64,000 nucleotides of DNA from an uncultured Candidatus Binatia bacterium. GTDB taxonomy: Bacteria; Desulfobacterota; Binatia; UBA9968; JAJDTQ01. Below are positions 1 through 15,946 of this stretch, piece after piece. The stretch covers positions 2,304,001 to 2,368,000 of the forward strand of contig OZ243916.1 in assembly GCA_965213675.1 (NCBI GenBank), given 5' to 3'. Each line of letters opens with the position of its first letter. Position 1 is the stretch's first letter. The notes below the pieces were generated by a model that worked only from the letters and a program-made list of their open reading frames with translations, made no database searches and was not told the DNA's origin. A program made the position numbers and the translations under genes.

Positions 1-1581
1 ACCATCCCGCCGCTGGTGTGCTCGCTGGTGGCGGTGGTATGGCAGCTCGGCACGGTCACCGCCCTGGGTTTCGGCATCGATCCCATGTCCATCCTGGTGC
101 CGTTCCTGGTATTCGCGGTGGGGGTCAGCCACGGCGTGCAGATGGTGAGCGCGGTGCGCGCCGAGGTGGTGGCCGGGGCCGCCGGCCTGGACGCGGCGCG
201 GGCGAGTTTCCGGCGTCTGCTGCTGCCCGGCGCGGTGGCGCTGGCGTCGGACTCCGTGGGTTTCATCAGCATCTCGTTCATCGAGGTGCAGGTCATCCGG
301 GAGACGGCCATCACCGCCAGCCTCGGCATCGTGGCCATCATTCTTACCAACCTGGCGCTGCTGCCGGTGCTGCTCTCATATTTCCGCATGAGCGAAGCCG
401 AGCGGCGGGCCGCGGCCGGGCGCGACAGCGTTCTGCGGCCGCTATGGTCCCGCGTGGCGCGGTTGGCGCACCGGGGTCCCGCGGCCGTGACCGTGGGCCT
501 TGCCGCGGCGCTGGTGACCGTGGGGGCCTTATACGCGGTCCAGGTCCAGGTGGGCGACAGCCACCAGGGCGTGCCCGAACTGCGCGCCGAATCCGTGTAC
601 AACCGTGACATCGCCACCATCACCGAACGCTTCAAGATCGGCGTGGACGTGCTCACGGTGTTCGCGGAGACGGTGCCGGACGGGTGCATCGACTACGACG
701 TGCTTGCTACCCTGGACGCGTTCACCTGGCACGTGCGCAACGTGGAGGGAGTCCAATCCGTGATGAGCCTGGCCAGCGTCGCGCGCAACATCAACGCCGG
801 CTGGAACGAGGGCAACCTCAAGTGGCGCACGCTGCCGCGAAACCGCCACAGCCTGGTGCAGTCGGTTGCGCCGGTACCCACCAGCAGCGGCCTCATCAAC
901 AACGATTGCAGCGTGCTCCCGGTGCGCATCTACACCGTCGATCACAAGGCGGAGACCATCCAGCGCGTGGTCGACGCCACCCGGGAGTTCCAGCGCCCGA
1001 ACACCGTGGAACGCATTCGCTTTCATCTGGCGGGGGGCAACGTCGGCGTGATGGCCGCCACCAACGAAGAAGTGGATGCTTCCCAGTTCCCGATCCTGGG
1101 CTACGTCTTCGCCGGGATCATCCTGCTGTGCCTGCTCTCGTTCCGCTCCGTGGCCGCCACGGTGTGCATCATCGTGCCGCTGGCCGCGGTATCCATCCTG
1201 GCCTACGGGCTCATGGCGATCCTGGAGATCGGGCTCAAGATCTCGACCCTGCCGGTGGTCGCCCTGGGGGTGGGAATCGGCGTGGACTACGCCATCTACA
1301 TCTATGGCCGGCTGCGCGCCCATCTGGAAGAAGGGCTGGACTTCGCCGACGCCTACGAACGCACCCTCAACATCACCGGCGCCGGCGTGGTGCTCACCGG
1401 ACTCACCCTGGCCGCGGGCGTGGCCACCTGGATCGTCGCCCCGCTCAAGTTCCAGGCCGACATGGGCACGGTGCTGATGTTCATGTTCCTGGTCAACATG
1501 ATCGCCGCCGTGGTGCTGCTGCCGGCCCTCGGCGCGTGGCTCGTGCGCCCGAGGCCGGCGGAACGCGTAAAAGGGACGTAG
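1..1581 (+). CDS. MMPL/RND family transporter (5' truncated by window edge)
   Basis: Reading frame open from the window start; two hydrophobic TM bundles around a periplasmic domain; motifs AVGVSHGVQ and GVGIGVDYAIY typical of MMPL proteins. Confidence 0.85.
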   Translation, partial: TIPPLVCSLVAVVWQLGTVTALGFGIDPMSILVPFLVFAVGVSHGVQMVSAVRAEVVAGAAGLDAARASFRRLLLPGAVALASDSVGFISISFIEVQVIRETAITASLGIVAIILTNLALLPVLLSYFRMSEAERRAAAGRDSVLRPLWSRVARLAHRGPAAVTVGLAAALVTVGALYAVQVQVGDSHQGVPELRAESVYNRDIATITERFKIGVDVLTVFAETVPDGCIDYDVLATLDAFTWHVRNVEGVQSVMSLASVARNINAGWNEGNLKWRTLPRNRHSLVQSVAPVPTSSGLINNDCSVLPVRIYTVDHKAETIQRVVDATREFQRPNTVERIRFHLAGGNVGVMAATNEEVDASQFPILGYVFAGIILLCLLSFRSVAATVCIIVPLAAVSILAYGLMAILEIGLKISTLPVVALGVGIGVDYAIYIYGRLRAHLEEGLDFADAYERTLNITGAGVVLTGLTLAAGVATWIVAPLKFQADMGTVLMFMFLVNMIAAVVLLPALGAWLVRPRPAERVKGT

Positions 1582-1604
1582 GGGCGCGTCTGAAACCCTC
1601 CCAT
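1578..1604 (+). repeat. Degenerate GTAG-type REP palindrome
   Basis: GTAGGGGCGCGTCTGAAACCCTCCC overlaps the MMPL stop; related degenerate copies at ~10050-10107 and 27410-27435. Confidence 0.45.
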
Positions 1605-1772
1605 CATTCAACCGCGGCCATTCAAGCCTACGCCGCACCGGCGAAAACCCAACCTCTCATAAAAGAGTGGCGGCCATGGGCATGAAGCCATACAATAGAA
1701 GCCGGATCTCATGGAGGTAGAAGGAAAAGATTTCCGGAAGCCGCAGGAGTCGGCATCGAAAGCGCACAGAAC

Positions 1773-4091
1773 ATGACTTCCAAGTCGAAGCCCGGTTTTT
1801 TCGATCTGATAGTGGATCGATACTTCTGGACGATAGCCGTCACTTTCCTGTTGACCGCCGTGCTCGCCACGGGAGTACAGCACCTCATTACCGTCAATGT
1901 AGGCATCCGAAATCACTTCGATGACAATGACCCGCATTTGATCAACCTCGACGATTTCGAAACGACCTACGCAGTGTCGGACAGCGTCCTCGTCATTGTC
2001 GCCCCGCCGAACGACACCGTTTTCACGCGCAAAGCACTCGTTGCGATTGAGCAACTGACGGACGTGTTGTGGCAAACGCCTTATTCTGTCCGTGTCGATT
2101 CGATAACCAATTACCTGCACACCGAGGGAATCGAGGACACCCTGATTGTCGAGCAACTGGTCGACGACGCGGCTTCGCTGGGCGACGTCAACCTCGCCCG
2201 CATTCGAGACATCGCCCTCACCGCACAGGAAACGGCCGGCCGTTTCGTCTCTCGCGACGGTCGTGTGGCCGGCCTGATCGTGAGCCTGGCCATCCCCGCT
2301 GAACAACGCAAACAGCGCAAAATCGAAGTGGTCGACGGTCTCTACGGTCTGGTCAACAAACAGCGCGCGGCCAACCCCGACATCGAATATCACATCTATG
2401 GTGAACTGTTGTTGAATCGGGCGGTTCGCGACGCGCTGACAGACGATATGTCCTTTTTGGCGCCAATCGCGCTTGCGATGATGGTTCTGGTCGCGATGCT
2501 GTTGTTGCGTTCGGTTTGGAGCGTTTGCGGGATTTTTGCGATGATAATTGCGGTGATGGCATCGAGTTTCGGCCTAACCGGCTGGTTCGGTTTGAAATTC
2601 TATGCGGAAAGCGGCGCCGCGGTATTCGTTCTGATGGCGATTGCCATCGCACACTCCGTCCACCTGATCGAAGGAGTGACCGTTGGAATGCTTCGTGGAA
2701 TGGAACGTAAAGCCGCCGTTGTTCACTCCCTGACAATCAATGCCCATCCGATCTTCCTTACTTCGCTCACCACCATGATCGGTTTTCTGAGCCTGAATTT
2801 TTCGGAAATGCCGCCGTTTCGAGTGATGGGTAATATCGTTGCGTTCGGCGCCATGTGCGCCTTCGTCTACGCGGTCACGCTTTTGCCCGCATTGTTGGCG
2901 ATGATGCCCATCCGGGCACCCGCCGAAACGAGACACGGAACGACACCTTTCAAGCGTTTGGGAGATTTCGTCGTTTCCAAAAGCATTTTCTTGCTATGGA
3001 CTTTCGTCATCCTCGTTCTGGTGAGCGCATATGGCATCTCGCGAATCAGCCTGAATGACAACAACAACGCCAAGCTCCTTAACGAAAGCTACGACTTGCG
3101 CCGATCGGGTGATTTCATCAACGAGCACTTTGCCGGGCTGGATTCCTTTGAGTATTCACTGAATTCCGGGCGCGCGGGGGGAATCACCGACATTGAGTAC
3201 CTGCGTCGGGTGGATTCGTTCGCCAACTGGCTTCGCGAACAGCCTGAAGTTTCTCACGTCACCTCGATTGCCGATATCATGAAGCGGATTAATCAAAATC
3301 TTCATAATGACGCAAAAGGCACCTATGCCCTCCCGGCAAACTCCGACCTTGCGGCGCAATACCTGCTTTTATACCAGTTCTCCCTACCGGTCGGCCGCGA
3401 CATAGACAATCTCATCAACTTTGAGCGGTCGGCGACCCGGATGACCGTCGTGATCGGGGGAATGTCGGTCAAAAAGCAAATCGAGCTGGACAATCGCGCT
3501 TCTGCCTGGCTGGGACACAATGCTCCGCAAATGCGGACCGGAGCGACCGGCGTCGCCATTGTGGGCGCTTACTCGGTGATGAGAAACATCGTGAACATGT
3601 TACTCGGCACCTTCATCGCGATCTCGACCGTGTCGCTGCTGTTGATCCTTGCATTCAAAAGCCTTCGCTTGGGGCTTCTAAGCCTGATACCCAATTTCGT
3701 GCCGGCAATCATATCCTTGGGGGCATGGGGTTACGCTGTGGGAACCGTGAATATTGCGGCGTCAATCGTTACCGCGATAGCGTTTGCCATCGTTGTGGAC
3801 GATACCATCCATCTCCTGTCGAAATACCTGACTTCACGCGCAGAGGGCAAATCACCTTCCGAAGCCATCCCGCCGACTTTCGAGCTCGTGGGACAACCGC
3901 TGCTGAGCACCACGTTGATTTTTGCGGTGGCATTTTTCGTCTTTGGCGCATCGGGGCTAGTGACCAATCAGACGCTCGGTTTGCTGGTCGGAATGACGGT
4001 CATCATTGCGCTCGTTGCGGACCTCTTTTTGTTACCGCCGCTTCTGCTGGCCCTCGACAGGACGAAACACCGGCAAACGCTCGACGACTAG
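1773..4091 (+). CDS. MMPL/RND family lipid transporter (candidate sterol/triterpenoid transporter)
   Basis: 772 aa, duplicated MMPL architecture, AIVVDDTIH motif in second half, LAAQYLLLY periplasmic motif; codon usage more A/T-rich than the flanking genes. Confidence 0.85.
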   Translation: MTSKSKPGFFDLIVDRYFWTIAVTFLLTAVLATGVQHLITVNVGIRNHFDDNDPHLINLDDFETTYAVSDSVLVIVAPPNDTVFTRKALVAIEQLTDVLWQTPYSVRVDSITNYLHTEGIEDTLIVEQLVDDAASLGDVNLARIRDIALTAQETAGRFVSRDGRVAGLIVSLAIPAEQRKQRKIEVVDGLYGLVNKQRAANPDIEYHIYGELLLNRAVRDALTDDMSFLAPIALAMMVLVAMLLLRSVWSVCGIFAMIIAVMASSFGLTGWFGLKFYAESGAAVFVLMAIAIAHSVHLIEGVTVGMLRGMERKAAVVHSLTINAHPIFLTSLTTMIGFLSLNFSEMPPFRVMGNIVAFGAMCAFVYAVTLLPALLAMMPIRAPAETRHGTTPFKRLGDFVVSKSIFLLWTFVILVLVSAYGISRISLNDNNNAKLLNESYDLRRSGDFINEHFAGLDSFEYSLNSGRAGGITDIEYLRRVDSFANWLREQPEVSHVTSIADIMKRINQNLHNDAKGTYALPANSDLAAQYLLLYQFSLPVGRDIDNLINFERSATRMTVVIGGMSVKKQIELDNRASAWLGHNAPQMRTGATGVAIVGAYSVMRNIVNMLLGTFIAISTVSLLLILAFKSLRLGLLSLIPNFVPAIISLGAWGYAVGTVNIAASIVTAIAFAIVVDDTIHLLSKYLTSRAEGKSPSEAIPPTFELVGQPLLSTTLIFAVAFFVFGASGLVTNQTLGLLVGMTVIIALVADLFLLPPLLLALDRTKHRQTLDD

Positions 4092-4259
4092 CTTTCGGGA
4101 CGTCTCGTGATGGCCGAAACCATGAGGTCCTGGACGCGCCGATGACCCCGGTTCCGCCGGCGTCTCGCGAGCAAACTTCCGCCCGTCCGCGTCCACGTTC
4201 GCGCCATGCCGTCATTCTCGACAGCGTCCGTATCGCCGGTCACGAGCGCAGGAGCACCT

Positions 4260-6290
4260 TCAGGCCGAAATGTCGCGCAACTGGCTTGCGATGCGCAGCC
4301 GAAGTTTCTTCGTAACCGACAATGCCGGGAATGGGTTGATTTTCAGTTTATAGTCTTTGGGCGGCGGCGCAAAGTCGAAATGGTGCGCTATAACCAACAC
4401 GGTAACCGTCGCCTGCAAATGCATCCATGCCCATCCCGCGCACGAGTGGGTATCCAAGCCGTTCGGAGCGTATCCAGGACCTTGATGCTCATTGCGCGGC
4501 GGCAGGTAACGGTCTATATCGAAGTCGTAGGGGTCTGCGAAGCAATCACTCATGTAGTGGGCCGCGGTTTGCACAATGTACAACCGTTCCCGGAGCGGCA
4601 GTGAATAATTTTCCACCACGCAAGAATTTGCGACATCGCGAAGATGTGTGCTGATAATCGGATACATTCGCAAGCATTCCATGAGAAAGCGCCTGGTAAC
4701 GTCATATTTGTCCGGCGTAAACGCTTCTTTATTCGGATCGCCGCCATCGAACAGCGCGTTTGCCTCTTCACGAATTCTCGCCGCAATATCCGGGTGCCTG
4801 GCCAACTCATAAAGTGCGAAACCCAACATGTCCCCTAGATAAATACTTTGAAACACGGGCGTTACCGCCATCATGAACATCAGGTTTTGCTCCGGGATAA
4901 ACTGCGGATCGCTGGTGTGCAAAGAAATCAGCTCGTCCGCCAGCTCCCGGGCAGCGCCTGCACGGTGAATGGGAATGTGGTTCTGTTCGATGCGCCGCAG
5001 GAGTTTCTCGTAAAGCTGGAAGCGATACTTCATGCCGGGAGTGCGCGTCAGGAATTTCGGGAGAAAATCCGCAACGTAGCAAAGGATTGCTTTTTCATTC
5101 CATTTGACCAGGTCTTCAAATACATCTTGCGAATTCGTACTAATAAGAACCTGAGACATTTGAAAATTGGTCATCGACCGGGTATCGCGCTGTACTTCCA
5201 GTGTCGAGCCGGCCTGCCACTTTTGAGTTATCATGAATTGGCGGCTCAGTCGGAACATGTCATCCAGCCGCTCGTGGAAACTGGCCTTCGAGTAAATTTT
5301 CCCCATCAGCTTGCGCAATCGAAAATGATCAGCTCCGTCCGTCGACGGCAGTAAATTGTTTGCGCCGCAAACCGTCTCCATCTTGCGAAAAAAATTGCCG
5401 GAAGTCAAAAACCTTCGGGAATTTCGACGCATCCAATGATTGATGTCAGGTCCTGCCAAAAATGTTCGCGGTCTTTGAAACGGCGGACAGATTTGAAAGA
5501 CGGGACCATATCGGGCGGCCAGATTCCCGAACAGGGCTGGCAGGTTGCCGTCCCACAAATGCCGATTTGCGAACAAGCTCCTTAGGGGAATCTTCGGAAT
5601 TGGTTTTGTGAGGGGTGAGTGTTGCAATACAGGCGTAATGGCGACCTGCTTGACAGCAGTGGAGATGACCCGGTTGATCAGTTCCGTTTTACAAACCTGG
5701 TCAATTCGCTTTTTCTCGTCCTCGCCCAGCTCGAAAATGAATTTGATGATATCGCACGCGCTCAAAAGACCGATTATCAGGGAATCCCTCGGGTCTGGAA
5801 TGATATCCGTGAAAATTACCTTCGCGATTCGCGATTTGATGTACTTTCCAACGGTCTCGCTTTGAGGATATCGTTCCAATTCCGCATGCCAGGCGCAGTG
5901 GTTCGTTGTATAAAACTCACCATCATGGCGCGTCAGAATTTCGGAGTTGATCAACTGCTTCAATGTAGCATCGATGATGTCTTCCGAATGAACTGCAAGC
6001 CGCTCAATCCAGTATCGCGGTTCTTCCAGATTGGGATGAGATGCGAACTCTTCCAGACATAAATCCAGTGCCGGGTCGCCTGTTTTGGTCGAGTCCAGGA
6101 GAAAGAGCGATTCTTCGTCGGTATCAATGCGTGATTTCAGGGAGAGATCGGCCAGAACTGCGCCGATGGTGGCGCAGTTCAACGTCCAGCCCTCCACTTG
6201 GTGGAAATAACCGTTCTGCTCGTTGAGAATCGTCAGGATGAATTCTTGCGGGATATTCAACGATTGCTTCGTTATCATGTTACACGCCAT
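4260..6290 (-). CDS. GPP34/GOLPH3(Vps74)-like domain fused to cytochrome P450
   Basis: N-terminal ~220 aa has the GPP34 pattern (EFILTILN..G..GAVLADLSLKSRID..TGDPALD..WIERL); C-terminal P450 has ExxR (ECLR), DPYDFDIDRY and heme Cys in THSCAG; start ATG at 6290 or 6278 after GAGGA. Confidence 0.82.
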   Translation of the reverse strand: MACNMITKQSLNIPQEFILTILNEQNGYFHQVEGWTLNCATIGAVLADLSLKSRIDTDEESLFLLDSTKTGDPALDLCLEEFASHPNLEEPRYWIERLAVHSEDIIDATLKQLINSEILTRHDGEFYTTNHCAWHAELERYPQSETVGKYIKSRIAKVIFTDIIPDPRDSLIIGLLSACDIIKFIFELGEDEKKRIDQVCKTELINRVISTAVKQVAITPVLQHSPLTKPIPKIPLRSLFANRHLWDGNLPALFGNLAARYGPVFQICPPFQRPRTFLAGPDINHWMRRNSRRFLTSGNFFRKMETVCGANNLLPSTDGADHFRLRKLMGKIYSKASFHERLDDMFRLSRQFMITQKWQAGSTLEVQRDTRSMTNFQMSQVLISTNSQDVFEDLVKWNEKAILCYVADFLPKFLTRTPGMKYRFQLYEKLLRRIEQNHIPIHRAGAARELADELISLHTSDPQFIPEQNLMFMMAVTPVFQSIYLGDMLGFALYELARHPDIAARIREEANALFDGGDPNKEAFTPDKYDVTRRFLMECLRMYPIISTHLRDVANSCVVENYSLPLRERLYIVQTAAHYMSDCFADPYDFDIDRYLPPRNEHQGPGYAPNGLDTHSCAGWAWMHLQATVTVLVIAHHFDFAPPPKDYKLKINPFPALSVTKKLRLRIASQLRDISA

Positions 6291-6358
6291 TCCTCGTGAT
6301 TTGATTCTTTCTCGTGATGCCGATGCCTGCGGCTTCCGGTCCCCTTTTTTCCATCCCT

Positions 6359-9300
6359 CTACGAGATCTTCTTTGCCGTTCCGGTTCCGCCGTCCGGCGT
6401 CATGTCCACAGCCGCCACTCTTCCAGCCATGACGCGTTGACTTCTCGCCGGTAATATCATGTTCATTCGTTGGTTCCGGCGACGCTGCTCGTAGAGGGCA
6501 AGCGCGTGCAGGGGGAAATACTGGCGGTAGAGCACGTAATCCAGGAGGGCCGTTCGAAAAAAAACGCCGGCCATGTCCTGCTTGGGCCAAGTCCCGTCTG
6601 CTTCCTGCGTATCAAGCAGGAAGCCGGCACCCCGGGAAATCGCGGCCCAGTCTGTTGTGCCCGCCTCGAGGAGCGCTATCAGCGCCCACGCGGTCTGTAT
6701 GACCTGGCTTTCCTGATGCGGGACGTAGCGACCGGTCAGGCAGCCGCTGTGGTGTTCGCCCCATCCCCCGTCTGGCTGCTGGCGCTCCAGCAGCCAGCGG
6801 CAAGACGCGCGCAGCGCCGGATCGCTTGGACCGGCCCGGTCCGAAACAAGGCCCCTGATGCCGAAAAGGGTGCCGTAGATGTACTGTACCCCCCATACGC
6901 CGCGCCAACTGCCGTCAGCCATCTGGTGCCGTCGCAACCACAAGACGCCCCGGGCGATGGAGTCGGCAACCACCGACCTGTCGCCAATTTCGGGAAATCG
7001 ATCCCGGCAGACAGCCAGCGCCGCGATACAAGACGCGGTACACTCGACAAAAGAACGCTCGGTCATCGATTCGCCGAACATCTCTGCAGGATTCAAACGC
7101 TCCAGATCAATTGCCGAGCGCCTGGCCTCATAACTGCCGAAGCCCCCGTCGGGGTTCTGGCTTCGCAACATAAAGCCAATCGCTTCGCTGAGGACGGACG
7201 GGTCCGTGTCGTCTCCGTGGGCGGCGACGAGTCCGAGCACCGCCTCCGCCGTGCAGTCACTCACCGGCCAGCCATGCCACCCGCCGGCGAAGCACCAGCC
7301 GCCTTTGGGGTCAGCGCGGTAGGCTTCACGAAACCGCTCAAAGCTGGTCTTGATCTGTTCGCCGAGCAGAAAATCGGCGCCGCGCCGGAGCGCATCCCGA
7401 ACACGGTCCGTCTCAGGCATGGTAGCCAGAGCCTGCAGCGCGAACCCGGTATCCCACGAAGCGCTTCTTGCTCCGCTGACCCGCAAGCCGTCGTCTTCGT
7501 CTTCCCATATCCAGGAACCCATTTTCGATAGCGCCCGTCGGCAATCGGTATCGTCCGGATCGTGCAGCCACAGCGCCAGAATGTTGAGAATGCCGCTGAC
7601 CGGAGAGATGCTCGTATGGCCGGTGGTCTGCAGTTCCCATCTGATCTGCCCGAGAATTGTATCCATGCACCGTGTGCGCAGGTGTTTGCTGTGGAACCGC
7701 TCGACCAGCCGTGCAAATCCATATCCGAGCCTGAGCCAGACGGACGGCCTTGCAAAAAGATCGGCGTCCCGAAGCCGGTTCCTGGCGGCGAGAAAGTCGG
7801 CCCTGGCAAAACCTTGCGGATAAAGCTCTTCCCGCAACGCGGCGATAACTGGTGTGACGGGCGCCTGGAACCGGCGGGCATAAATCGACGCCATCGCCAT
7901 ATAGATGAGCCGTGTATGGCAGTACCAGTTGGAAGGATGCAGCGGTATCTTCCGCGGCAGGCTCCACAATTCCGGCAGAACAGCGTTCACGCCGTTCCAA
8001 TCATAAAGATTAAGGAGCGCCAGCCATAATTTTCCCCAGCTCGGAATGCCGAGAATCCCCTCGGCCTGAATGAACCGCCGGGCCGGCGCGATCAGGGGGT
8101 CATCCGGCAATACACCGAGCAGCCGCGCCGCGACATAAACGAGGGCGGTGACGAACAGATGGGGCGACGAATGCTCGTGCAGGCCCCATGAACCGTCCTG
8201 GAGACGAGTCCTCTCAAACGAGCGCAGCACCCGGCGCCGCTTTCCCGGATCGAGCGGCTGGCCGATGATGTGGTGGAGCAGTACGTATTGCGCCGTGAGC
8301 ATGGGACACCAGACCATCTCGCCTTCCCAGTCGCCGTCCTCTCTCTGCAGTTGCACGAGGCATTGGGCGGCGCTGTCCAGCGCCGGGCCGGCATCGGGCG
8401 AATCGACCGCTCCCGCGCGGGCGGGCCGCTCCGATTCGGTTTTCGAAGGGATGGAATAGGGGAATGCCCGTCGTAGGTGCTCTCGCGTATTCGCGCTTTC
8501 CTCCCTTCCTTCCCTGGTCGCCGCCCTCAACTGGCGGATGCCGAGCAGCAACCACCAAAGGCGAGCAGCCAACGCGCGAAAGTTCACCAACATCCGACGC
8601 CATGAAAGCCTGCGGATGGAGAAGGTTATCTCCCGGCTCATTGCCCGCGCGACAGTTTCGCAAAAGGAGAAAACCGTCATTGACATGGACAAGTCTTCGC
8701 AGGCAAGTATCCGCATGGTCCGGTCCCGATACCCCGAATTCGCTCGCCAGCCTTGGTAAACGGCCTTTCTGAGCATAGCCGATTCGGTGCGGTAATCGCC
8801 CAACACCTCATAAAGCCCCATGGCAAGGAACTCGGGAACACGGGTCGCCTGGAACCGCTCTGCGGTGAATTGCTGGAAGTCCTCGCTTTCGGAGAGCGCC
8901 AGCGCATCGCCGAAGCCGAGAGTCATGCCGACTGCCGTCATGGGATGATAGTGTCCGGCGGCATCGCCGATAAGCACCCGGCGCGGGTTCCCGTACGTGA
9001 CACGCGGTCTCAATTGGTTGGGGGCGGCATGGAATCGCCTGACGTCCAGCGCTTCGACGAAGGCCGGCCCGAGATATCCCGGAAGCAGCTTGCCATAGGA
9101 TTCAGACAAGAAACTTATCCAGTCCTTGGAATGCCAGCAGTCCAATGGGACATCCACGTTGACCCGGACGGAGCCGTTCGCAAGTCCGTAAATGAAAATT
9201 GGACCCGGCCCGCCCAGAACCACATGTCCGTATCCTTCAAACGGCAGGTCGGCGTCGTGTAACGTCACCCCGAGCATCCGCGAACAGAGCATCGGGTCCA

Positions 9301-9799
9301 TGGAATACCCCAAGGATCTGCGCACGATCGAAGCGCGGCCGTCGGCGCCGATAATTCGGTCGACATTTATGGCGCAGTCCGAGCGGTCTTTCGAGAAGGT
9401 GATCCGTTCGTCTTCAACGACATTGACCCGCGCGTGGGAAATGAAATCGACATTGGCCTCGTTCTCTATGACCTCGCGGAGGCTTGAAACGAGCAGCGCG
9501 TGGTCGCATACCAGACCCCGTGAACCGTCTGGATAAGGAAGCAGGATCGGGTCGGAGTCGTCGTCGGGCAGCACCACGAAGCCGACGCCCGACTTGCTGC
9601 CGGAAAGCGTGTCGACATCAATCCCGATGTCACGCAACAAATTCACTGCCGGCGGATGCAACCATTCGCCTGCAAGGCGTTTAGACGCTTTCGGATTCGC
9701 TTCGAGCAGGGCCACCTTAACGCCCTTGCGCGCAAGGACAATTGCGCACACGCTTCCCACCGGTCCCGCGCCGACAATGGCGGTATCATACTTCGGCAC
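6359..9799 (-). CDS. Fused squalene monooxygenase (epoxidase) - oxidosqualene cyclase
   Basis: N-terminal FAD domain has GAGPVG, RLAGEWLHP, GADG and GDAAGHYHPMTAVGMT (squalene-epoxidase-like); C-terminal domain has QW repeats (QREDGDW, QMADGSW, QQPDGGW, QEADGTW), IPSWGKLWL, WYCHTR and catalytic VSDCTAE; single uninterrupted frame; GTG start at 9799 after GAGGAG. Confidence 0.92.
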   Translation of the reverse strand: MPKYDTAIVGAGPVGSVCAIVLARKGVKVALLEANPKASKRLAGEWLHPPAVNLLRDIGIDVDTLSGSKSGVGFVVLPDDDSDPILLPYPDGSRGLVCDHALLVSSLREVIENEANVDFISHARVNVVEDERITFSKDRSDCAINVDRIIGADGRASIVRRSLGYSMDPMLCSRMLGVTLHDADLPFEGYGHVVLGGPGPIFIYGLANGSVRVNVDVPLDCWHSKDWISFLSESYGKLLPGYLGPAFVEALDVRRFHAAPNQLRPRVTYGNPRRVLIGDAAGHYHPMTAVGMTLGFGDALALSESEDFQQFTAERFQATRVPEFLAMGLYEVLGDYRTESAMLRKAVYQGWRANSGYRDRTMRILACEDLSMSMTVFSFCETVARAMSREITFSIRRLSWRRMLVNFRALAARLWWLLLGIRQLRAATREGREESANTREHLRRAFPYSIPSKTESERPARAGAVDSPDAGPALDSAAQCLVQLQREDGDWEGEMVWCPMLTAQYVLLHHIIGQPLDPGKRRRVLRSFERTRLQDGSWGLHEHSSPHLFVTALVYVAARLLGVLPDDPLIAPARRFIQAEGILGIPSWGKLWLALLNLYDWNGVNAVLPELWSLPRKIPLHPSNWYCHTRLIYMAMASIYARRFQAPVTPVIAALREELYPQGFARADFLAARNRLRDADLFARPSVWLRLGYGFARLVERFHSKHLRTRCMDTILGQIRWELQTTGHTSISPVSGILNILALWLHDPDDTDCRRALSKMGSWIWEDEDDGLRVSGARSASWDTGFALQALATMPETDRVRDALRRGADFLLGEQIKTSFERFREAYRADPKGGWCFAGGWHGWPVSDCTAEAVLGLVAAHGDDTDPSVLSEAIGFMLRSQNPDGGFGSYEARRSAIDLERLNPAEMFGESMTERSFVECTASCIAALAVCRDRFPEIGDRSVVADSIARGVLWLRRHQMADGSWRGVWGVQYIYGTLFGIRGLVSDRAGPSDPALRASCRWLLERQQPDGGWGEHHSGCLTGRYVPHQESQVIQTAWALIALLEAGTTDWAAISRGAGFLLDTQEADGTWPKQDMAGVFFRTALLDYVLYRQYFPLHALALYEQRRRNQRMNMILPARSQRVMAGRVAAVDMTPDGGTGTAKKIS

Positions 9800-10103
9800 C
9801 GAGTCAGCCCTCCTCAAAGGGCGCTGGGTATAGCGCGGCGGCGGTTGTGGAGGGCAGGTCTTCCAGGTTCGCCACTGGGGTAGGCATGACGAGCGCCTCC
9901 TGCACCACGTTCGTGGCGAGGCCGGTGAAGGTCAGAGTCGGGTCACTTCCCGCACCGTGTTTGCGAGCGAATCATCTTGTCTTTCAAGGGACGAGTTGTA
10001 TTTCTTTGTTTTCAGCCAATTGCGGGCGGCAGGACAAACCTTACACGGCCAAGTTTCAAACCCGCCAGTGTCCAATCGCGCCGAGACGTGTCTCCAACCC
10101 CCC

Positions 10104-10742
10104 CTACGCCGCGAACGACGCCTGTGTTTCCTTCTCGAAGGCCAGTAGCTTCTGGACGCTGGGGCGGGTCTGCATGCGCGCGAAATGCGCGCGCACGTTG
10201 GGATAGGGCTCCAGGTCGATGTCGAACTGGGTGCTGCGGCGTACGCACCAGAAGAAATGCGCGTCCGGCGCGGTGAAGTGATCGAAGAAGTACTCGCGCC
10301 CGTCCAGCATGGACTCGGCGATTCCGTTGGTCTCGGCCAGGAACTCGGCGGCGATGCGGGACACGCTCTCCACGCTGTCCGCCGCGTCGCACACCTTGGC
10401 CGGCGAGTTGATGCGGCTCAGATAAGGGTGGATGCCCGATGCGCACCACGACATGATCGAGATCGCCCTGACCTCATCCCAAGGATCCGACGGCAGCAGC
10501 CTGGCCTCCGGGAAGCGCCGCGCGATCCACACCTGAATGGCCACGTTCTCCGTCAGGGTTTTCCCGTCCACCATCAGAAGCGGCACCTTGTGCTTGGGAT
10601 TGAGCTTCATGTACTCCTCGGTGCGGTTCTGCCCCGCCCGGAAGTTCAACGCCTTGACTTCGAAGTCCGCCCCCGCCTCGGTCAACGTGATGTAGGGCGC
10701 CATCGCGCAGGTGATGGGCGCGTAATACAACTGGATGCTCAT
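10104..10742 (-). CDS. Glutathione S-transferase family protein
   Basis: NPKHKVPLL and LTENVAI motifs, 212 aa, GGAGG RBS. Confidence 0.9.
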   Translation of the reverse strand: MSIQLYYAPITCAMAPYITLTEAGADFEVKALNFRAGQNRTEEYMKLNPKHKVPLLMVDGKTLTENVAIQVWIARRFPEARLLPSDPWDEVRAISIMSWCASGIHPYLSRINSPAKVCDAADSVESVSRIAAEFLAETNGIAESMLDGREYFFDHFTAPDAHFFWCVRRSTQFDIDLEPYPNVRAHFARMQTRPSVQKLLAFEKETQASFAA

Positions 10743-10779
10743 GGGTACCTCCGTGTGGTTGGCGACGAGGGTAAGTGCG

Positions 10780-10866
10780 TGGTGCCGGAGGGGGGACTCG
10801 AACCCCCACAGGGTTGCCCCTACTGGATTTTGAGTCCAGCGCGTCTACCAATTCCACCACTCCGGC
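10780..10866 (-). tRNA. tRNA-Leu(CAA)
   Basis: Cloverleaf GCCGGAG..CTGGA-CTCAAAA-TCCAG, long variable arm, GTTCGAG T-loop, encoded CCA. Confidence 0.97.
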
Positions 10867-10919
10867 ACGGAGTGAACCTGACCAGGAGCTTGCGCCGCAG
10901 GACTTCACGGCTGCAAATC

Positions 10920-11004
10920 CGCTCTCATCCGTCCCTTCGGCCGCTCGATCTCGTCAAACATGACCTGATATTCTCCTCGATCGGCCGAAGGGACGGCGAT
11001 AGCG
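10920..11004. repeat. Long imperfect inverted repeat upstream of tRNA-Leu
   Basis: CCGTCCCTTCGGCCGCTCGA ... TCGATCGGCCGAAGGGACGG. Confidence 0.6.
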
Positions 11005-11040
11005 AATTTTCGCCTTCGCCAATTACTGCGGAGCAGGCTC

Positions 11041-11205
11041 CTGGTGTCGTGTCCCACGTAAATCTTGACAAGGATGCACAGGATTTTTCGTTGCCGGCAA
11101 GGCGCGATGACGAGCCATGGCTGTTACCAAGCGAGGAAGAGCAACGCAGCCGACGACGAAAAAGACCCGCAGATTTGCCAACATTTACGCGGGACACGAC
11201 ACTAG
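11041..11205 (+). mobile_element. MITE/ERIC-like repeat, copy 1 (165 bp)
   Basis: Terminal inverted repeats CTGGTGTCGTGTCCCACGTAAAT / ATTTACGCGGGACACGACACTAG; core GTTGCCGGCAAGGCGCGATGACGAGC..GCGAGGAAG..ACGCAGCCGAC shared with other copies. Confidence 0.85.
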
Positions 11206-11233
11206 CTTATGGCGGAAGTGACGTCAAGGTGCG

Positions 11234-11497
11234 TCACGCCTCGGCAAGTCCCGCCAATGGTATCGCCTGCTCCACCAACATGACGGGGATGTCCTCGCGG
11301 ACGGCGTAGAGGTAGCGGCCGTCCGCGCGAACGAGACCGCCGTCGATGGGTTCGGTCACCCTGTCGCCGGCGCGGTTGCGCAGTTGCCCGCCTTCGATCT
11401 TCCGATTGACGGTAGCGACGAGCGCCTCGTCCGCCAGCGAAACCGCCTCGTGGGTTTCGGGACATGCCAGGATGTTGAGCAATTTCTCATCAATCAC
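11234..11497 (-). CDS. Trm112-like family protein
   Basis: LLNILACP N-terminus and Y.VREDIPVML C-terminus; GGAGG RBS before GTG. Confidence 0.85.
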   Translation of the reverse strand: MIDEKLLNILACPETHEAVSLADEALVATVNRKIEGGQLRNRAGDRVTEPIDGGLVRADGRYLYAVREDIPVMLVEQAIPLAGLAEA

Positions 11498-11595
11498 GCC
11501 TGCCTCCAGTCACGCCCGGTTGGACGCTCAATTAATATTTCTCGCCGGCCCGCGGGTGTCAAACAGATCGCCGGCGCCCGCTGCCCCCGCCTGCC

Positions 11596-11700
11596 TGGAT
11601 TCCCGCTTCCGCGGGAATGACACATCCGTGGGACCGATTTCGTCCCCGCCCATGTCGCCCGAAAGCCGACATGGACGATTCCCCCTTTCGCGGCAACGAC
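11596..11700. repeat. REP-like palindromes (GGATTCCCGC..GCGGGAATGAC type) plus hairpin
   Basis: TGGATTCCCGCTTCCGCGGGAATGAC at 11596-11621, hairpin CCATGTCG..CGACATGG, degenerate second copy at 11677-11700. Confidence 0.6.
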
Positions 11701-11785
11701 GGTTCGGCCCGTGGACGCGCGCGCCGTCCACGCGTTTGATGCGACGGGGCCCCTTGGCTATGTTGCCGTGTGGAGGTGGCCAACC

Positions 11786-13363
11786 ATGAACGGGACTTTC
11801 AGGGAGTACATCGAACTGCTGCGGGAGCACGACGAGCTGCTTGACATTCGCAAGCCGGTGGATCTGCGGGACGTCGCAGCGCTCACCGCGCAGAGCGACC
11901 CGGCGCTGCTGTTTCACAATCCCGTGGGCTACTCCATCCCGGTGGCCTGCGGGCTGCTGCAGAAGCGGGAACGGCTGGGCCTCGCCATGGACGCTCCCTA
12001 CCCGGAGATCCACAAGCGCTTCCAGTTCGCCATGTCCAACTCCATCGACCCGGTGATGGTGGACGACGCTCCAGCCAAGGAATGCATCCGGCAAGGCGAC
12101 GACGTGGACCTGTTCAAGCTGCCGGTGCCGATCTTCTCCACCCTGGACGGCGCGCCCATGATCACGGCCGCGGTCGTCATCGCCCAAGACCCCGAGTACG
12201 GCATGAACGCCGGCGTCTACCGGCTCATGCTCAAGGAGCGGAACGTCACCGGCATCGACATCGTGACACCCAACAACCTGCACCGCTTCGTGCAGCGGGC
12301 GCTGGCCGAGAACCGGCCGCTGCCCATCTCCATGTCCATCGGGGTGCATCCGAGGGAGCTCATGGGGGCGCTCTTCAAGGCATCCCTGGGTACCAACGAA
12401 CTGGGTTTCGCTGGCGGCCTCGGCGGGCGGCCGGTGGAGCTGACCCCCGGCGTGGCTACACCGGTTCCGTTCATCGCGGGCTCGGAGATCGTCCTGGAAG
12501 GCGAGATCCCGCCCGAGGGCTGGATTCATCCCGAAGGCCCCTTCGGCGAGTTCTCGCGCCTGGTGGGAGGCACCCACCGCAACCCCAACGTCCACGTGAA
12601 GTCGGTGCTGCACCGGCGCGATCCGATCTATTACGCCTTGCACATGCCATGGGAGAACCTGTGGATGAGCGCGCCCATCTACGAGGCCGCGGCCTGGCGC
12701 GTGCTGGCAGAGACGGGCGTACAGGTCACCGCCATCAACGTCACGCCCGGCGGCTGCTGCCACTGGCACATCGTGGCGTCCATCAAGAAGAGCCCGGGGG
12801 ACGGCAAGAACGCCATCGCCGCGCTGCTGTCCATCGCCGATATCAAGTACGTGGTGGTCACCGACGACGACATCGACATCTTCGACCCCGTGGAAGTGGA
12901 GTGGGCCATCGCCACCCGCGTGCAGGCGGACCGGGACACCGTGATCCTCTCCAACGCCCGCTCCAAGCCCCTGGACCCATCCATTCCGCCCAGCGCCAAC
13001 GGGGTCCCCACCACCGCCAAGATGGGCATCGACGCCACCATACCCGAGAACGTGCCGCGCTACCGCTACAACCGCATCATCTACCACAACCAGGGCAAGG
13101 CCGTGCTTGACGACTACCTGAGCGAATCCCCGGCCGCGCCGCAGCCGGCGGCGGCGGACGACGACGCCATCCAACGGCTGGCGCAACGAACCCTGGACAT
13201 GCTGCGCGAAAAGCGGCTTACCTTCAGCGAGTTGCTGGACGCCTTCCCGGATCAGGCATTCGCCACGGTCATGGCGCTGGTGGGACGCCTCAACGAAGGC
13301 AGGCAGATCACCCTGGACGAAGAGGGGAAGTACATGCCGGCGGAGGATGCACCAGAGGCCTGA
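11786..13363 (+). CDS. UbiD family (prFMN-dependent) decarboxylase
   Basis: NAGVYRL, EIVLEG, EGPFGE, VTDDDIDI, WAIATR and KMGIDAT motifs; GGAGG RBS before ATG 11786. Confidence 0.92.
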   Translation: MNGTFREYIELLREHDELLDIRKPVDLRDVAALTAQSDPALLFHNPVGYSIPVACGLLQKRERLGLAMDAPYPEIHKRFQFAMSNSIDPVMVDDAPAKECIRQGDDVDLFKLPVPIFSTLDGAPMITAAVVIAQDPEYGMNAGVYRLMLKERNVTGIDIVTPNNLHRFVQRALAENRPLPISMSIGVHPRELMGALFKASLGTNELGFAGGLGGRPVELTPGVATPVPFIAGSEIVLEGEIPPEGWIHPEGPFGEFSRLVGGTHRNPNVHVKSVLHRRDPIYYALHMPWENLWMSAPIYEAAAWRVLAETGVQVTAINVTPGGCCHWHIVASIKKSPGDGKNAIAALLSIADIKYVVVTDDDIDIFDPVEVEWAIATRVQADRDTVILSNARSKPLDPSIPPSANGVPTTAKMGIDATIPENVPRYRYNRIIYHNQGKAVLDDYLSESPAAPQPAAADDDAIQRLAQRTLDMLREKRLTFSELLDAFPDQAFATVMALVGRLNEGRQITLDEEGKYMPAEDAPEA

Positions 13364-13516
13364 GCCGGAAGACAGTCCAAGAGCCTGGCGGGATCACGAG
13401 GTCTCTGCGGGGACCCGTGCAGGGAGACGCCACACCCGGGCGCGCATACCGGTTCCAGACGGATCCGTGTCCGGTTGCGCGGGCGCTTGTGGATCGGGAC
13501 CGAAAGGAGAAGGATC

Positions 13517-14140
13517 GTGTCGGCAGAACTCGTTTTCTACACCCACCCCATGTCGCGCGGGCGCATCGTGCGCTGGATGCTGGAGGAGTTGCGCGTCCCC
13601 TACCGCACCGAGAGGGTGGAGTACGGCCCGATGATGAAGGCGCCGGAGTACCTGGCCATCAACCCCATGGGCAAGGTGCCCGCCATCCGCCATGGCGACA
13701 CCGTGGTCACCGAGTGCGCCGGCATCTGCGCCTATCTCGCCGATGCCTTCCCCGACGCCGGGCTGGCGCCTCCGGCCGGACAGCGCGGTGCCTACTTCCG
13801 CTGGCTGTTCTTCGCCGCCGGCCCGTTGGAGGCGGCGGTCACCGGCCGCATGTTCGGTTTCGCGGTGCCAGCGGACAAGGAATCCATGGTGGGCTACGGC
13901 AACTACGCCACGGTGATGAACGCGCTGGAGACGGCGGTGGCGGGCGACGGTTATGTCGCGGGCCATGCCTTTTCGGCCGCCGACGTGTACGTCGGATCGC
14001 ACATCGGTTGGGGCATGCAGTACGACACCGTCGAGAAACGCCCGGCCTTCGAAGCGTACTGGTCGCGGCTCAGCGCGCGCGAGGCCTATCAGCGCGCCAA
14101 CGCCATCGACGATGCGGCGGCTTCGGCCGACAACGCGTAA
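13517..14140 (+). CDS. Glutathione S-transferase family protein
   Basis: PMSRGRIVRWMLEE, NPMGKVPAI, TECAGIC; AGGAG RBS before GTG 13517. Confidence 0.9.
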   Translation: MSAELVFYTHPMSRGRIVRWMLEELRVPYRTERVEYGPMMKAPEYLAINPMGKVPAIRHGDTVVTECAGICAYLADAFPDAGLAPPAGQRGAYFRWLFFAAGPLEAAVTGRMFGFAVPADKESMVGYGNYATVMNALETAVAGDGYVAGHAFSAADVYVGSHIGWGMQYDTVEKRPAFEAYWSRLSAREAYQRANAIDDAAASADNA

Positions 14141-14244
14141 CGCCGGGGGTACCGCCCCACACTCACACGAGCAGCCCGTCACGTCCGCGCCCGCGCCGTC
14201 AGCATCGAGACGGGCAGGCTCATGGGCCCCTCCTGAATCCGGTT

Positions 14245-14907
14245 CTAATGGATGCCCGTGATCTTCACGCTGGCGTGCTTCGACTTGTAGCGACGATTGA
14301 GGGCGATGAGCACGCCGGTCAACCCCTCCACCACGTAGGCGTTGGAAGCCGGTCCGGCGTCCAGGCCGGTGGCGCCGATGCGCTCCAACAGCTCGATGAC
14401 GCGCCCCTTGGCTTCCCGATTGTCGCCGCACACCAGCACGTCGCCCAGGGGCTCGTCCGGGGCGCTGAGGTCCAGCGCCGAGATGTTGTGCAGCGCGCCG
14501 ATGACCGGGGTGTCGTCGCCCAGGATCTTCTGCGCCTCCAGCAGCGCCGAACCCGCTTCCGGCACGAACGGCCGACCCTTGAGCAGCGGCACCACCGCGT
14601 CGATGACGATCTTGCCGCGCAGTTCGTCCGCCAGATCGGCCACCATCTTCTCCTGTCCCTCGTAGGGGACCGAGATGACCGCCAGCTCCGCTTCGCGGAC
14701 TGCGTCGGCGTTGAGCATGCCTTCGACAAAGGAAGTGCCCAGCCTCTCGTTCAAATCCCGGGCTGCATCCGCGCCGCGCTGGGCGTCGCGTGAGCCGATC
14801 AGAACCCGCACACCGGGCCGCGCCAAGCGTCCCGCCAAGCCCATTCCGAGACTTCCGGTCCCTCCAACGATTGCAATTGAAATGGAATCTTGCATGGGGT
14901 GGCTCAT
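14245..14907 (-). CDS. npdG: NADPH-dependent F420 reductase (F420H2:NADP+ oxidoreductase)
   Basis: GGTGSLG Rossmann motif, IGSR, GSA, ALHNISA, DVLVCGD, VEGLT; lies in the cof operon; true start may be ATG 14895. Confidence 0.9.
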   Translation of the reverse strand: MSHPMQDSISIAIVGGTGSLGMGLAGRLARPGVRVLIGSRDAQRGADAARDLNERLGTSFVEGMLNADAVREAELAVISVPYEGQEKMVADLADELRGKIVIDAVVPLLKGRPFVPEAGSALLEAQKILGDDTPVIGALHNISALDLSAPDEPLGDVLVCGDNREAKGRVIELLERIGATGLDAGPASNAYVVEGLTGVLIALNRRYKSKHASVKITGIH

Positions 14908-14999
14908 AGCATGTTCGCGCCGGATGCGACAAATCCGCTCTGGACAGGTTCACTTGCAAGGCTGCCTTCCGACTTCGCTCGGCGGACGCGGAGTTGTGC

Positions 15000-15029
15000 C
15001 CGGGAGCCTGCGCCGCAGGCTCCCGGCGC
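15000..15029. repeat. REP-like palindrome GGGAGCCTGCGnCGCAGGCTCCC
   Basis: CCGGGAGCCTGCGCCGCAGGCTCCCGG; related copies near 10881-10905, 51115-51135 and 56211-56233. Confidence 0.6.
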
Positions 15030-15147
15030 GAACGGACGGGGAGCGCTCCCCTGAAGGCTTCGGCAAGCTCAAGACAGGCTTTGGGGAACGCGGGGAGCGC
15101 GGGGGGGCGCGGGCGCAGCGCCGGTCCCATGCACTTCCGCTGAAGTG

Positions 15148-15912: not shown

Positions 15913-15946
15913 GTTCTGCCGCGCGCGGCCCTACGAAACGGACAAC

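Follow-up and report, generated by a model that had tools for sequence, protein, structure and literature searches.

Sterol gene clusters are known from sponge-associated bacteria. Clusters of the ERG24-CYP51-LSS type are reported by Kelly et al. 2022 (PMC9531527) from metagenome-assembled genomes (MAGs) of Ircinia sponges, in ten phyla including Binatia, and sterol clusters with functional sterol methyltransferases (SMTs) are reported in PMC10070321. Sponge symbionts are also said to be the exclusive source of GPP34_L, a class of proteins in which a GPP34 domain is joined to a cytochrome P450 (656 of 663 long forms); PMC11706023 (Microbiome 2025) proposes that these are secreted effectors which bind phosphatidylinositol-4-phosphate (PI4P) and block phagosome maturation. 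The BstABC sterol transport system is described in PMC10942540; the substrate of BstA is a 4-methylsterol and that of HpnN a hopanoid. The locus described here is an island at positions 1635-9860 of a 64,000-nucleotide window (contig OZ243916.1 of an uncultured Candidatus Binatia bacterium). It holds three genes, which encode a fusion of squalene monooxygenase and oxidosqualene cyclase (SMO-OSC), a GPP34-P450 fusion and an MMPL/RND transporter. It is probably a compact sterol module that moves horizontally, of a type carried by sponge-associated bacteria, and would make, oxidise and export a lanosterol-type protosterol.

Like the island, the published clusters comprise sterol genes and show signs of horizontal transfer; their carriers are sponge-associated bacteria from a range of phyla, with Binatia among them (PMC9531527, PMC10070321). 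The island differs from them in composition. ERG24, CYP51 and SMT are all absent, neither ERG24 nor CYP51 adjoins the cyclase, the GPP34-P450 is the sole tailoring enzyme, and the island brings its own transporter. The cluster type of PMC9531527 is found right beside GPP34-P450 genes in two other loci, L006 and L022. Neither GPP34 nor an RND transporter is named in the main texts of PMC9531527 and PMC10070321, and the words 'P450' and 'transporter' do not occur in that of PMC10070321; the supplements of these papers may differ.

Three long open reading frames (ORFs) are found by ORF list and translation within positions 1773-9817, the MMPL gene on the forward strand and the other two on the reverse strand. 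The spacer between SMO-OSC and GPP34-P450 is 68 nucleotides (nt); the MMPL gene and GPP34-P450 are convergent, with 168 nt between their stops. GC content at third codon positions (GC3) is 0.683 in the MMPL gene, 0.606 in GPP34-P450 and 0.718 in SMO-OSC, against 0.907 (1-1581, MMPL-like), 0.901 (10104-10742, GST-like) and 0.887 (11711-13363, UbiD) in flanking genes. An earlier note on this DNA had placed the three genes side by side with these domains, two of them co-oriented across a gap of about 70 bp and the MMPL gene converging on them, and had seen more A/T-rich codon usage than in the flanks. It was correct on every point that could be checked: Pfam and NCBIfam profiles agree with the domains, and GC3 is 0.61-0.72 against 0.89-0.91. 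Overall GC of the island is 0.569, compared with 0.676 and 0.660 in the flanks, and a GC below 0.55 is rare across the 3.97-Mb contig (C1), at just 0.1% of its 1985 windows of 2 kb.

The three genes travel as one block through differing genomic contexts. Searching species genomes with the GPP34-P450 protein yielded three further loci (L001, L002 and L003, one of them from an uncultured Candidatus Binatia bacterium), each with SMO-OSC, GPP34-P450 and MMPL in the same order as in the window. DNA identity to the window by blastn is 88-97% and is confined to the stretch from 1635 (L002, L003) or 1758 (L001) through 9854-9860; the flanks of these loci fail to align with those of the window. The same 8.2-kb block is thus present in four genomes with unrelated flanks. 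Public sequencing runs (four, compared over window positions 1-11500) include one, X1, with a contig which joins 1586 to 10068 without the island, with 16 other letters between. Run X5 has one contig whose start coincides exactly with 1635 and a second whose match ends at 9860, beyond which it continues into unlike sequence. Runs labelled 'sponge metagenome' (X8 and X12) contain pieces of the island and its flanks at 90-95% identity. Runs with small shares (X9-X11 and X13-X18) were left out of the evidence, and no RNA data set is listed as containing the island. Full-length GPP34-P450 fusions are present in only two of 301 genomes sampled from the phylum of the window: its own genome (G000) and G110, in which the fusion is 31% identical. 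On the basis of composition, the island-less X1 contig and this rarity, the block looks horizontally acquired. The earlier note had proposed both a three-gene unit and horizontal acquisition, and both proposals are supported.

Island copies also appear to have exchanged DNA. Compared with L001, the MMPL part of the island is 82-94% identical and the remainder 97-99%; synonymous divergence (dS) is 0.22 in the MMPL part and 0.014-0.076 elsewhere. This mosaic pattern suggests that island copies have recombined, the breakpoint lying close to where the convergent genes end. The sole long repeat is the internal upstream element described below; long direct or inverted repeats are absent from either side of the island, and no integrase was found among the scanned ORFs of positions 1-16000. 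A scan of positions 1400-10300 gave two promoter-like and eleven terminator-like sites, which is not above shuffled sequence. Co-occurrence was also assessed from the 120 best database relatives of each protein, using an identical longest-contig size in two lists as a proxy for, but not proof of, the same contig. By this measure GPP34-P450 and MMPL share 30 contigs, OSC and GPP34-P450 share 10, OSC and MMPL share 11, and all three share four, one of which is 10,307 bp (about 10.3 kb) long.

Squalene epoxidation and cyclisation are predicted to be carried out by a single polypeptide. The SMO part scores 78.6 bits against Pfam SE (cut-off 20.1) and 75.3 bits against FAD_binding_3; its translation contains the GxGxxG FAD-binding Rossmann motif, and among solved structures it comes closest to human squalene monooxygenase (6c6n, E 2e-28). 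The OSC part scores 177.5 bits against SQHop_cyclase_N and 187.8 bits against SQHop_cyclase_C (cut-offs of about 26), and matches human lanosterol synthase (1w6k) with E 2e-135. SMO-OSC scores 507.4 bits against TIGR01787 (cut-off 322.7). The catalytic DCTAE motif lies in the stretch VSDCTAEA, which aligns with human residues 453-460 (DCTAE being D455-E459). At positions 381, 449 and 453 in human numbering, the cyclase has Ala, His and Val. Bacterial cyclases with Val453 have been associated with lanosterol and those with Ile453 with cycloartenol (Wei et al. 2016; the rule is also found in Summons 2006), and by the same rule eukaryotic lanosterol synthases carry T381 and C/Q449. Given V453, lanosterol is the best guess for the product, with the caveat that residue 381 is odd. 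A C-terminal tail of about 40 amino acids (aa) extends past the alignment with lanosterol synthase.

Fused proteins of this type are not confined to the island. All of the 120 best database relatives of SMO-OSC are 1044-1184 aa long and carry both sets of domains; the few named ones among them come from Rhodospirillales, Thiotrichales and Nitrospira MAGs. In print, the methods of Brown et al. 2023 refer to 'fused SMO/OSC homologs' that were trimmed. The main text of Hoshino and Gaucher 2021 makes no mention of SMO-OSC fusions, and 'fused' appears there in a reference only.

Squalene is supplied by the host's native hpnC-hpnD-hpnE genes. The host genome (G000) is 97.7% complete and has SMO-OSC as its sole triterpene cyclase. 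HpnC, HpnD and HpnE score 269, 314 and 400 bits, above the NCBIfam equivalog cut-offs of 250, 279 and 283, and their genes lie at 3.153-3.165 Mb of contig C1 together with ispH, dxs, an MMPL gene and a LolA-like gene; GC3 is 0.86-0.87, which is host-like. Since there is no squalene-hopene cyclase in the genome, this hopanoid-style locus seems to feed the acquired SMO-OSC only. Within the wider region (L083, C1:3147001-3166000), the order is hpnC-hpnD-hpnE-ispH, a convergent HAE3/MMPL gene, the LolA-like gene, an unknown 417-aa gene and dxs. Other sterol genes were sought in G000: no match was found to ERG4/ERG24 (PF01222) or to the sterol methyltransferase C-terminal domain, and tblastn returned no homolog of CYP51, SMT, SdmB or the FAD oxidase. 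The two other P450s of the genome are ordinary and not CYP51-like.

The GPP34-P450 protein is 676 aa long if translated from the ATG at 6290; the frame stays open to a TTG at 6590. Pfam GPP34 matches at 81.7 bits (cut-off 29.1) and Pfam p450 at 78.4 bits (cut-off 22.8), the latter over profile positions 282-455 only. With GPP34 and P450 in one protein, it belongs to the GPP34_L class, and it resembles the published members in its two domains, its length of about 670 aa and its spread over many phyla; relatives are found on contigs prefixed JGIcombinedJ30088, which are labelled Aplysina aerophoba in PMC10070321. Points of difference from the published account are its place within a sterol island, its pairing with an MMPL gene and the loss of R90 from the PI4P pocket. 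The family is large. In a library clustered at 50% identity, GPP34-P450 matches 207 clusters with E values of 1e-30 or below; roughly 40 of the top 150 are full-length fusions, and more than 120 clusters carry the same pair of domains. Across 73 sequences there is no variation at the heme ligand C617, at G619 or at the ExxR residues E538 and R541. The ratio of nonsynonymous to synonymous substitution (dN/dS) is 0.085-0.21 for GPP34-P450 and 0.19-0.20 for MMPL in comparison with L001-L003; both genes are under purifying selection.

The P450 domain is related to CYP51 but is not a member of that family. The best solved relative of the family profile is Cytochrome P450 51 (6mi0/7jj1/6mcw, presumably the enzyme of Methylococcus capsulatus), with E 3e-24 and the whole P450 domain aligned, and the His-x-Cys heme loop is similar. 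Identity to CYP51 is 22-28% and the signature I-helix is replaced: aligned by hhalign to L022's true CYP51, the domain reaches a probability of 98.2% at 22% identity, with AGQHTS of CYP51 opposite YLGD. The window protein also differs in its N-terminal GPP34 domain. True CYP51 genes (E 1e-100 to 6mcw) stand beside GPP34-P450 in L006 and L022, and this coexistence argues that GPP34-P450 is a distinct enzyme. A role as the general C-14 demethylase of sterol clusters was considered and rejected, as tblastn shows a true CYP51 in L006; GPP34-P450 could still have that role in the genome of the window, which has no CYP51.

The GPP34 domain is recognisable at the profile level. A profile of 22 such domains matches GOLPH3 (3kn1) with E 5e-5, a single domain compared with the PDB gives a best hit of only E 0.47, and a search of the ESM Atlas returned nothing beyond the family's own clusters. 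In GOLPH3, the PI4P pocket is formed by W81, R90, R171 and R174 (Wood et al. 2009, PMC2806290). W81 corresponds to the invariant W35 and is thus kept, and R90 corresponds to I42, which is Ile or Val across the family; R171 and R174 fall opposite E103 and I106, with no basic residue there, in a low-confidence stretch of the alignment. The N-terminus of the translated protein has no hydrophobic signal-like stretch. GPP34 joined to a Rieske domain or to an ABC ATPase is also published (PMC11706023), and such fusions fit a membrane-targeting module for lipid-handling proteins.

Additional GPP34 genes were observed in the host and elsewhere. G000 has a short single-domain GPP34 gene (C1:220018-220755, reverse strand; 245 aa, Pfam 149.8 bits) which is far from any P450 gene. 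The fusion in G110, a genome of the same class, joins a GPP34 domain to a canonical full-length P450 (L085 = G110:C1:128001-148000, 10461-12467, reverse strand). L048 (9899-14086) and L049 (6127-12019) each have two GPP34-P450 genes, in tandem or near one another, on a single metagenome contig, and one 249-kb metagenome contig carries further copies (L048, L074). Such tandem copies fit the multi-copy GPP34 state reported in PMC11706023.

The third protein of the island is an MMPL transporter with a sterol-sensing domain. It scores 107 bits against Pfam MMPL (cut-off 20.5), 27.5 bits against Sterol-sensing (cut-off 22.3) and 169 bits, below cut-off, against NCBIfam HAE3; its best solved relatives are MmpL4/5, at just E 4e-7. 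Like HpnN and BstA, it is an MMPL/RND protein of the inner membrane whose gene lies next to genes for triterpenoid synthesis, and a LolA-like periplasmic protein accompanies the MMPL protein in L004, L027 and L031. It differs from them in scoring far below the equivalog cut-offs, and no BstB or BstC homolog is present in the island. GPP34-P450 and MMPL are the most tightly coupled gene pair. The two form an operon in L005, L006, L058 and L081, with MMPL 68-80 nt downstream of GPP34-P450 and in the same orientation; in the window and in L001-L004 the MMPL gene is inverted.

The inverted MMPL gene has a counterpart of the upstream region of GPP34-P450. In the window and in L001-L003, the 130-170 nt or so upstream of MMPL duplicate the sequence that precedes GPP34-P450. 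An nhmmer search found two copies only in the whole genome and none in the other 78 loci. L002 and L003 carry the element at the same two positions, and in L001 the MMPL copy is truncated at the island edge. Copy 2 covers the last 30 or so codons of SMO-OSC. A structured RNA was considered for this element and rejected: there is no Rfam match (E up to 1), and RNAalifold gives -9.9 kcal/mol with a covariation term of +0.25 and compensatory changes in one of 20 pairs. The element may be a duplicated promoter or leader which holds GPP34-P450 and MMPL under common control.

Two observations concern MMPL genes in general. A LolA-like protein (PF17131) and a protein of about 420 aa without Pfam or NCBIfam match form a recurrent pair beside MMPL genes (L004 15330-17661, L027 12079-14292, L031, L010, L083 10516-12569 and L084), and may work with the transporter in the periplasm or the outer membrane. 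The window itself has a native second MMPL/HAE3 gene (1-1581, forward strand, GC3 0.907), which stops 54 nt left of the island edge; the island has therefore landed beside a transporter of the same superfamily.

Sterol-type genes are common around GPP34-P450 in other loci. A scan of metagenomes with an alignment of 18 fusions gave 79 further loci, or 82 in total; ORFs were called and clustered, and recurrent clusters were named by Pfam and NCBIfam. Dereplication left 55 full-length GPP34-P450 genes, 31 of which have at least 5 kb on both sides, and neighbours of these were counted within 10 kb. The commonest is a KshA_C-type Rieske oxygenase (18 of 31 loci), followed by an MMPL gene with a sterol-sensing domain (15), an SMT (11), a FAD amine-oxidase-type gene (8) and SMO-OSC (5). 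At least one of SMT, SMO-OSC, ERG24, Rieske oxygenase or an SdmB-like gene is present in 27 loci; of the others, three also lack MMPL and one has MMPL only. A narrower count restricted to SMT, SMO-OSC, ERG24 and SdmA/B gives 15 of 31 by row reading. Across all 82 loci, tblastn detects an SMT in 31 and a KshA-type Rieske gene in 33.

Three of these loci are complete sterol clusters. L004 contains SMO-OSC, SdmA (382 bits), SdmB (303 bits), GPP34-P450, MMPL, a LolA-like gene and an unknown 424-aa gene. In L006, SdmB-SdmA-ERG24-CYP51-SMO-OSC lie on one strand, divergent from GPP34-P450-MMPL. L022 has ERG24-CYP51-SMO-OSC, two SMTs and GPP34-P450. The cyclase parts of the SMO-OSC proteins in these loci are 69-78% identical to that of the window. 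A quick maximum-likelihood tree places the window GPP34-P450 in a clade of seven rows (SH-aLRT 100), six of which are flanked by SMO-OSC; the sister clade of 62 rows is mostly accompanied by SMT, MMPL and Rieske genes. The commonest Rieske neighbour is not SdmA, as it scores 31 bits compared with 382 bits for the SdmA-like gene of L004. This KshA-type oxygenase (loci L007-L077, e.g. L018 14794-15888) is often found with a FAD amine-oxidase-type gene, and both are candidate sterol-tailoring enzymes.

Table 1. Features of the island and its surroundings, in window coordinates.
Feature	Position	Strand	Basis
Horizontally acquired island (putative)	1635..9860		Sole stretch common to L001, L002 and L003 (blastn)
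MMPL/HAE3-type RND transporter with sterol-sensing domain, 772 aa	1773..4091	+	Pfam
GPP34-P450 fusion, 676 aa, member of the published GPP34_L class	4260..6290	-	Pfam
GPP34 (GOLPH3-like) domain, residues ~13-213	5652..6254	-	Pfam GPP34, E 1e-22
Divergent P450 domain, residues ~240-676	4263..5573	-	Pfam p450; invariant heme Cys, ExxR
SMO-OSC fusion, 1152 aa, TTG start	6359..9817	-	Pfam, NCBIfam
Squalene monooxygenase part and hydrophobic linker, residues 1 to ~460	8438..9817	-	SE, FAD_binding_3
Oxidosqualene cyclase part, residues ~479-1111	6485..8383	-	Human lanosterol synthase 1w6k, E 2e-135
Upstream element copy 1, before MMPL gene	1637..1762	+	Inverted repeats I1/I2, alignment, nhmmer E 2e-29
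Upstream element copy 2, before GPP34-P450, overlapping the last codons of SMO-OSC	6286..6453	-	nhmmer E 1e-49
tRNA-Leu(CAA), ~0.9 kb right of the island edge	10780..10866	-	ARAGORN; Rfam tRNA, 58.3 bits

A pathway through the island can be proposed from these assignments. The SMO half would epoxidise squalene and the OSC half would cyclise the epoxide, with lanosterol as the probable product in view of V453. GPP34-P450 would then oxidise the sterol product of the cyclase, though not as an ordinary C-14 demethylase, and its N-terminal GPP34 domain would hold the P450 at the cytoplasmic membrane, where the substrate sits. Finally, the MMPL/RND protein with its sterol-sensing domain would extract the product from the inner membrane, much as HpnN or BstA do. 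Action of the P450 and of the MMPL protein on the cyclase product is inferred from gene neighbourhood. The earlier note had sketched much the same function, a unit that makes, oxidises and traffics a cyclic triterpenoid. The observation behind it is confirmed as real and well beyond chance, and its assignment to sterol-type triterpenoid metabolism is borne out by the orthologous blocks which stand among SdmA, SdmB, ERG24, CYP51 and SMT in L004, L006 and L022. Its interpretation as a whole is partly supported, and its functional sketch is the best reading of the locus.

Several findings weigh against a module that makes, oxidises and exports a sterol. On the side of synthesis, position 381 of the cyclase is Ala, which is neither the lanosterol-type nor the cycloartenol-type residue, and the fusion protein scores 733.8 bits against TIGR03463 (2,3-oxidosqualene cyclase), below the cut-off of 851. 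SMO-OSC dN/dS is 0.53-0.68 against L001 and L003, at a very low divergence (dS 0.014-0.053). There is no close CYP51 in the three other island-bearing genomes (L001-L003), and an ERG24-family gene is present in one of the four; any sterol would therefore stay a protosterol. On the side of oxidation, the island has no redox-partner gene. The I-helix oxygen-activation motif (A/G)Gx(D/E)T(T/S) is missing from GPP34-P450, the aligned stretch being QSIYLGD, and the aromatic residue before the heme loop, Tyr or Phe in 17 relatives, is Asn in the window copy; lacking the I-helix acid-alcohol motif, GPP34-P450 may not be a classical monooxygenase. The fusion in G110 adjoins a sulfotransferase and a molybdopterin oxidoreductase in DNA of host-like GC, with no sterol gene, so the GPP34 and P450 architecture is wider than the sterol-linked family. 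As to export, the MMPL protein scores 91.9 bits against the HpnN model TIGR03480 (cut-off 751.85), 29.7 against NF052374 (cut-off 1100) and 17.8 against the BstA model NF045600 (cut-off 1400). As to mobility, the island-less X1 contig matches the window at 85% likeness and may thus represent a more distant relative, not the same strain.

Gene neighbourhoods also bear on what the GPP34-P450 family does elsewhere. SMO-OSC is not found within 10 kb in 26 of the 31 loci, so the tie of GPP34-P450 to de novo synthesis is not general. This count weighs against a role in sterol production, and it favours a different role, in which the GPP34-P450/MMPL pair and KshA-like Rieske oxygenases handle sterols of the sponge host by uptake, modification or breakdown and the adjacency to SMO-OSC is secondary. 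The commonest neighbour, a Rieske oxygenase with a 3-ketosteroid 9-alpha-hydroxylase C-terminal domain that is not SdmA (18 of 31 loci, 31 bits), points the same way, as do the acyl-CoA dehydrogenase gene in L077, the report of the family from sponge symbionts only (PMC11706023) and the 'sponge metagenome' runs that contain pieces of the island. However, a biosynthetic SMT directly adjoins GPP34-P450 in 11 of the 31 loci and is found by tblastn in 31 of 82, SMO-OSC is present in six of the seven loci in the window's clade, and the island moves as SMO-OSC, P450 and MMPL together. In addition, HAE3/MMPL transporters of known function export lipids. Handling of host sterols is therefore an unlikely explanation for the island. 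A cyclase that makes a non-sterol triterpenol (of arborane, parkeol or other type), to be tailored and exported by the P450 and the MMPL protein, is rather improbable. The mixed signature of 381 Ala and 449 His, the TIGR03463 score and a genome without CYP51, ERG24, SMT or SdmB would suit such a product, and a bacterial arborane-triterpenol OSC is cited in the reference list of PMC9531527; V453 with DCTAE and the strength of the lanosterol synthase match do not, and the closely related cyclases of L004, L006 and L022 are flanked by the sterol enzymes SdmA/B, ERG24, CYP51 or SMT.

The published proposal for the family would make the sterol neighbours incidental: GPP34-P450 would be secreted, bind host PI4P and block phagosome maturation (PMC11706023). 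The GPP34 fold is indeed recognisable, both by Pfam and in the profile match to GOLPH3. The tryptophan corresponding to W81, which packs against the inositol ring, is invariant, and the family is reported to be restricted to, and expressed in, sponge symbionts (PMC11706023). The rest of the pocket does not follow, as R90 is replaced by Ile or Val and nothing basic stands opposite R171 and R174 in that low-confidence part of the alignment, and the N-terminus has no signal-like stretch. A P450 needs heme and cytoplasmic electron donors, which counts against secretion. Sterol-type genes lie near GPP34-P450 in 27 of the 31 loci, and the gene forms an operon with that of an inner-membrane transporter. 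PMC11706023 looked at gene neighbours for the short form of GPP34 alone, and sterol, squalene, cyclase and MMPL do not occur in its main text; its supplements may show neighbouring genes. A secreted effector is accordingly a very improbable explanation for the window protein. The sterol module described above, which makes, oxidises and exports its product, is preferred over all three alternatives.

The earlier note did not recognise the architecture as a described system, and this stands only in part. The three parts have each been described separately: fused SMO/OSC proteins, GPP34_L and the sterol clusters of sponge symbionts are all published. The exact trio and a link between GPP34_L and sterols were not found in the open-access literature, although supplements may show them; searches there that combined sterol with GPP34 or with 'Golgi phosphoprotein 3' returned unrelated papers only. 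Two things are new: the minimal, mobile form with three genes, and the assignment of the GPP34-P450 family, together with its MMPL partner, to sterol metabolism, a rival to the effector hypothesis in print.

Sterol synthesis by bacterial symbionts of sponges matters for the reading of sterane biomarkers and for the question of what symbionts may give to their hosts. The GPP34-P450 family is among the clearest genomic marks of sponge symbiosis, and PI4P binding with evasion of phagocytosis is the sole hypothesis in print for its function; its placement in sterol clusters with a sterol-sensing transporter offers an alternative which is directly testable. The island of the window is the smallest natural context for such a test, as it has three genes and there is no other sterol enzyme in the genome. 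A bolder reading can be put forward tentatively: GPP34-P450 might be a membrane-docked sterol oxidase with a dedicated sterol-sensing RND exporter, and the island a self-contained 8-kb make-modify-export cassette which hops and recombines between unrelated sponge-associated bacteria and needs only squalene from its host cell. P450-modified sterols of symbiont origin that reach the cell surface, and perhaps the sponge, could then be the basis of the family's tie to symbiosis. The island also shows that one 8-kb block is enough to carry the capacity for making a sterol into a squalene-making bacterium.

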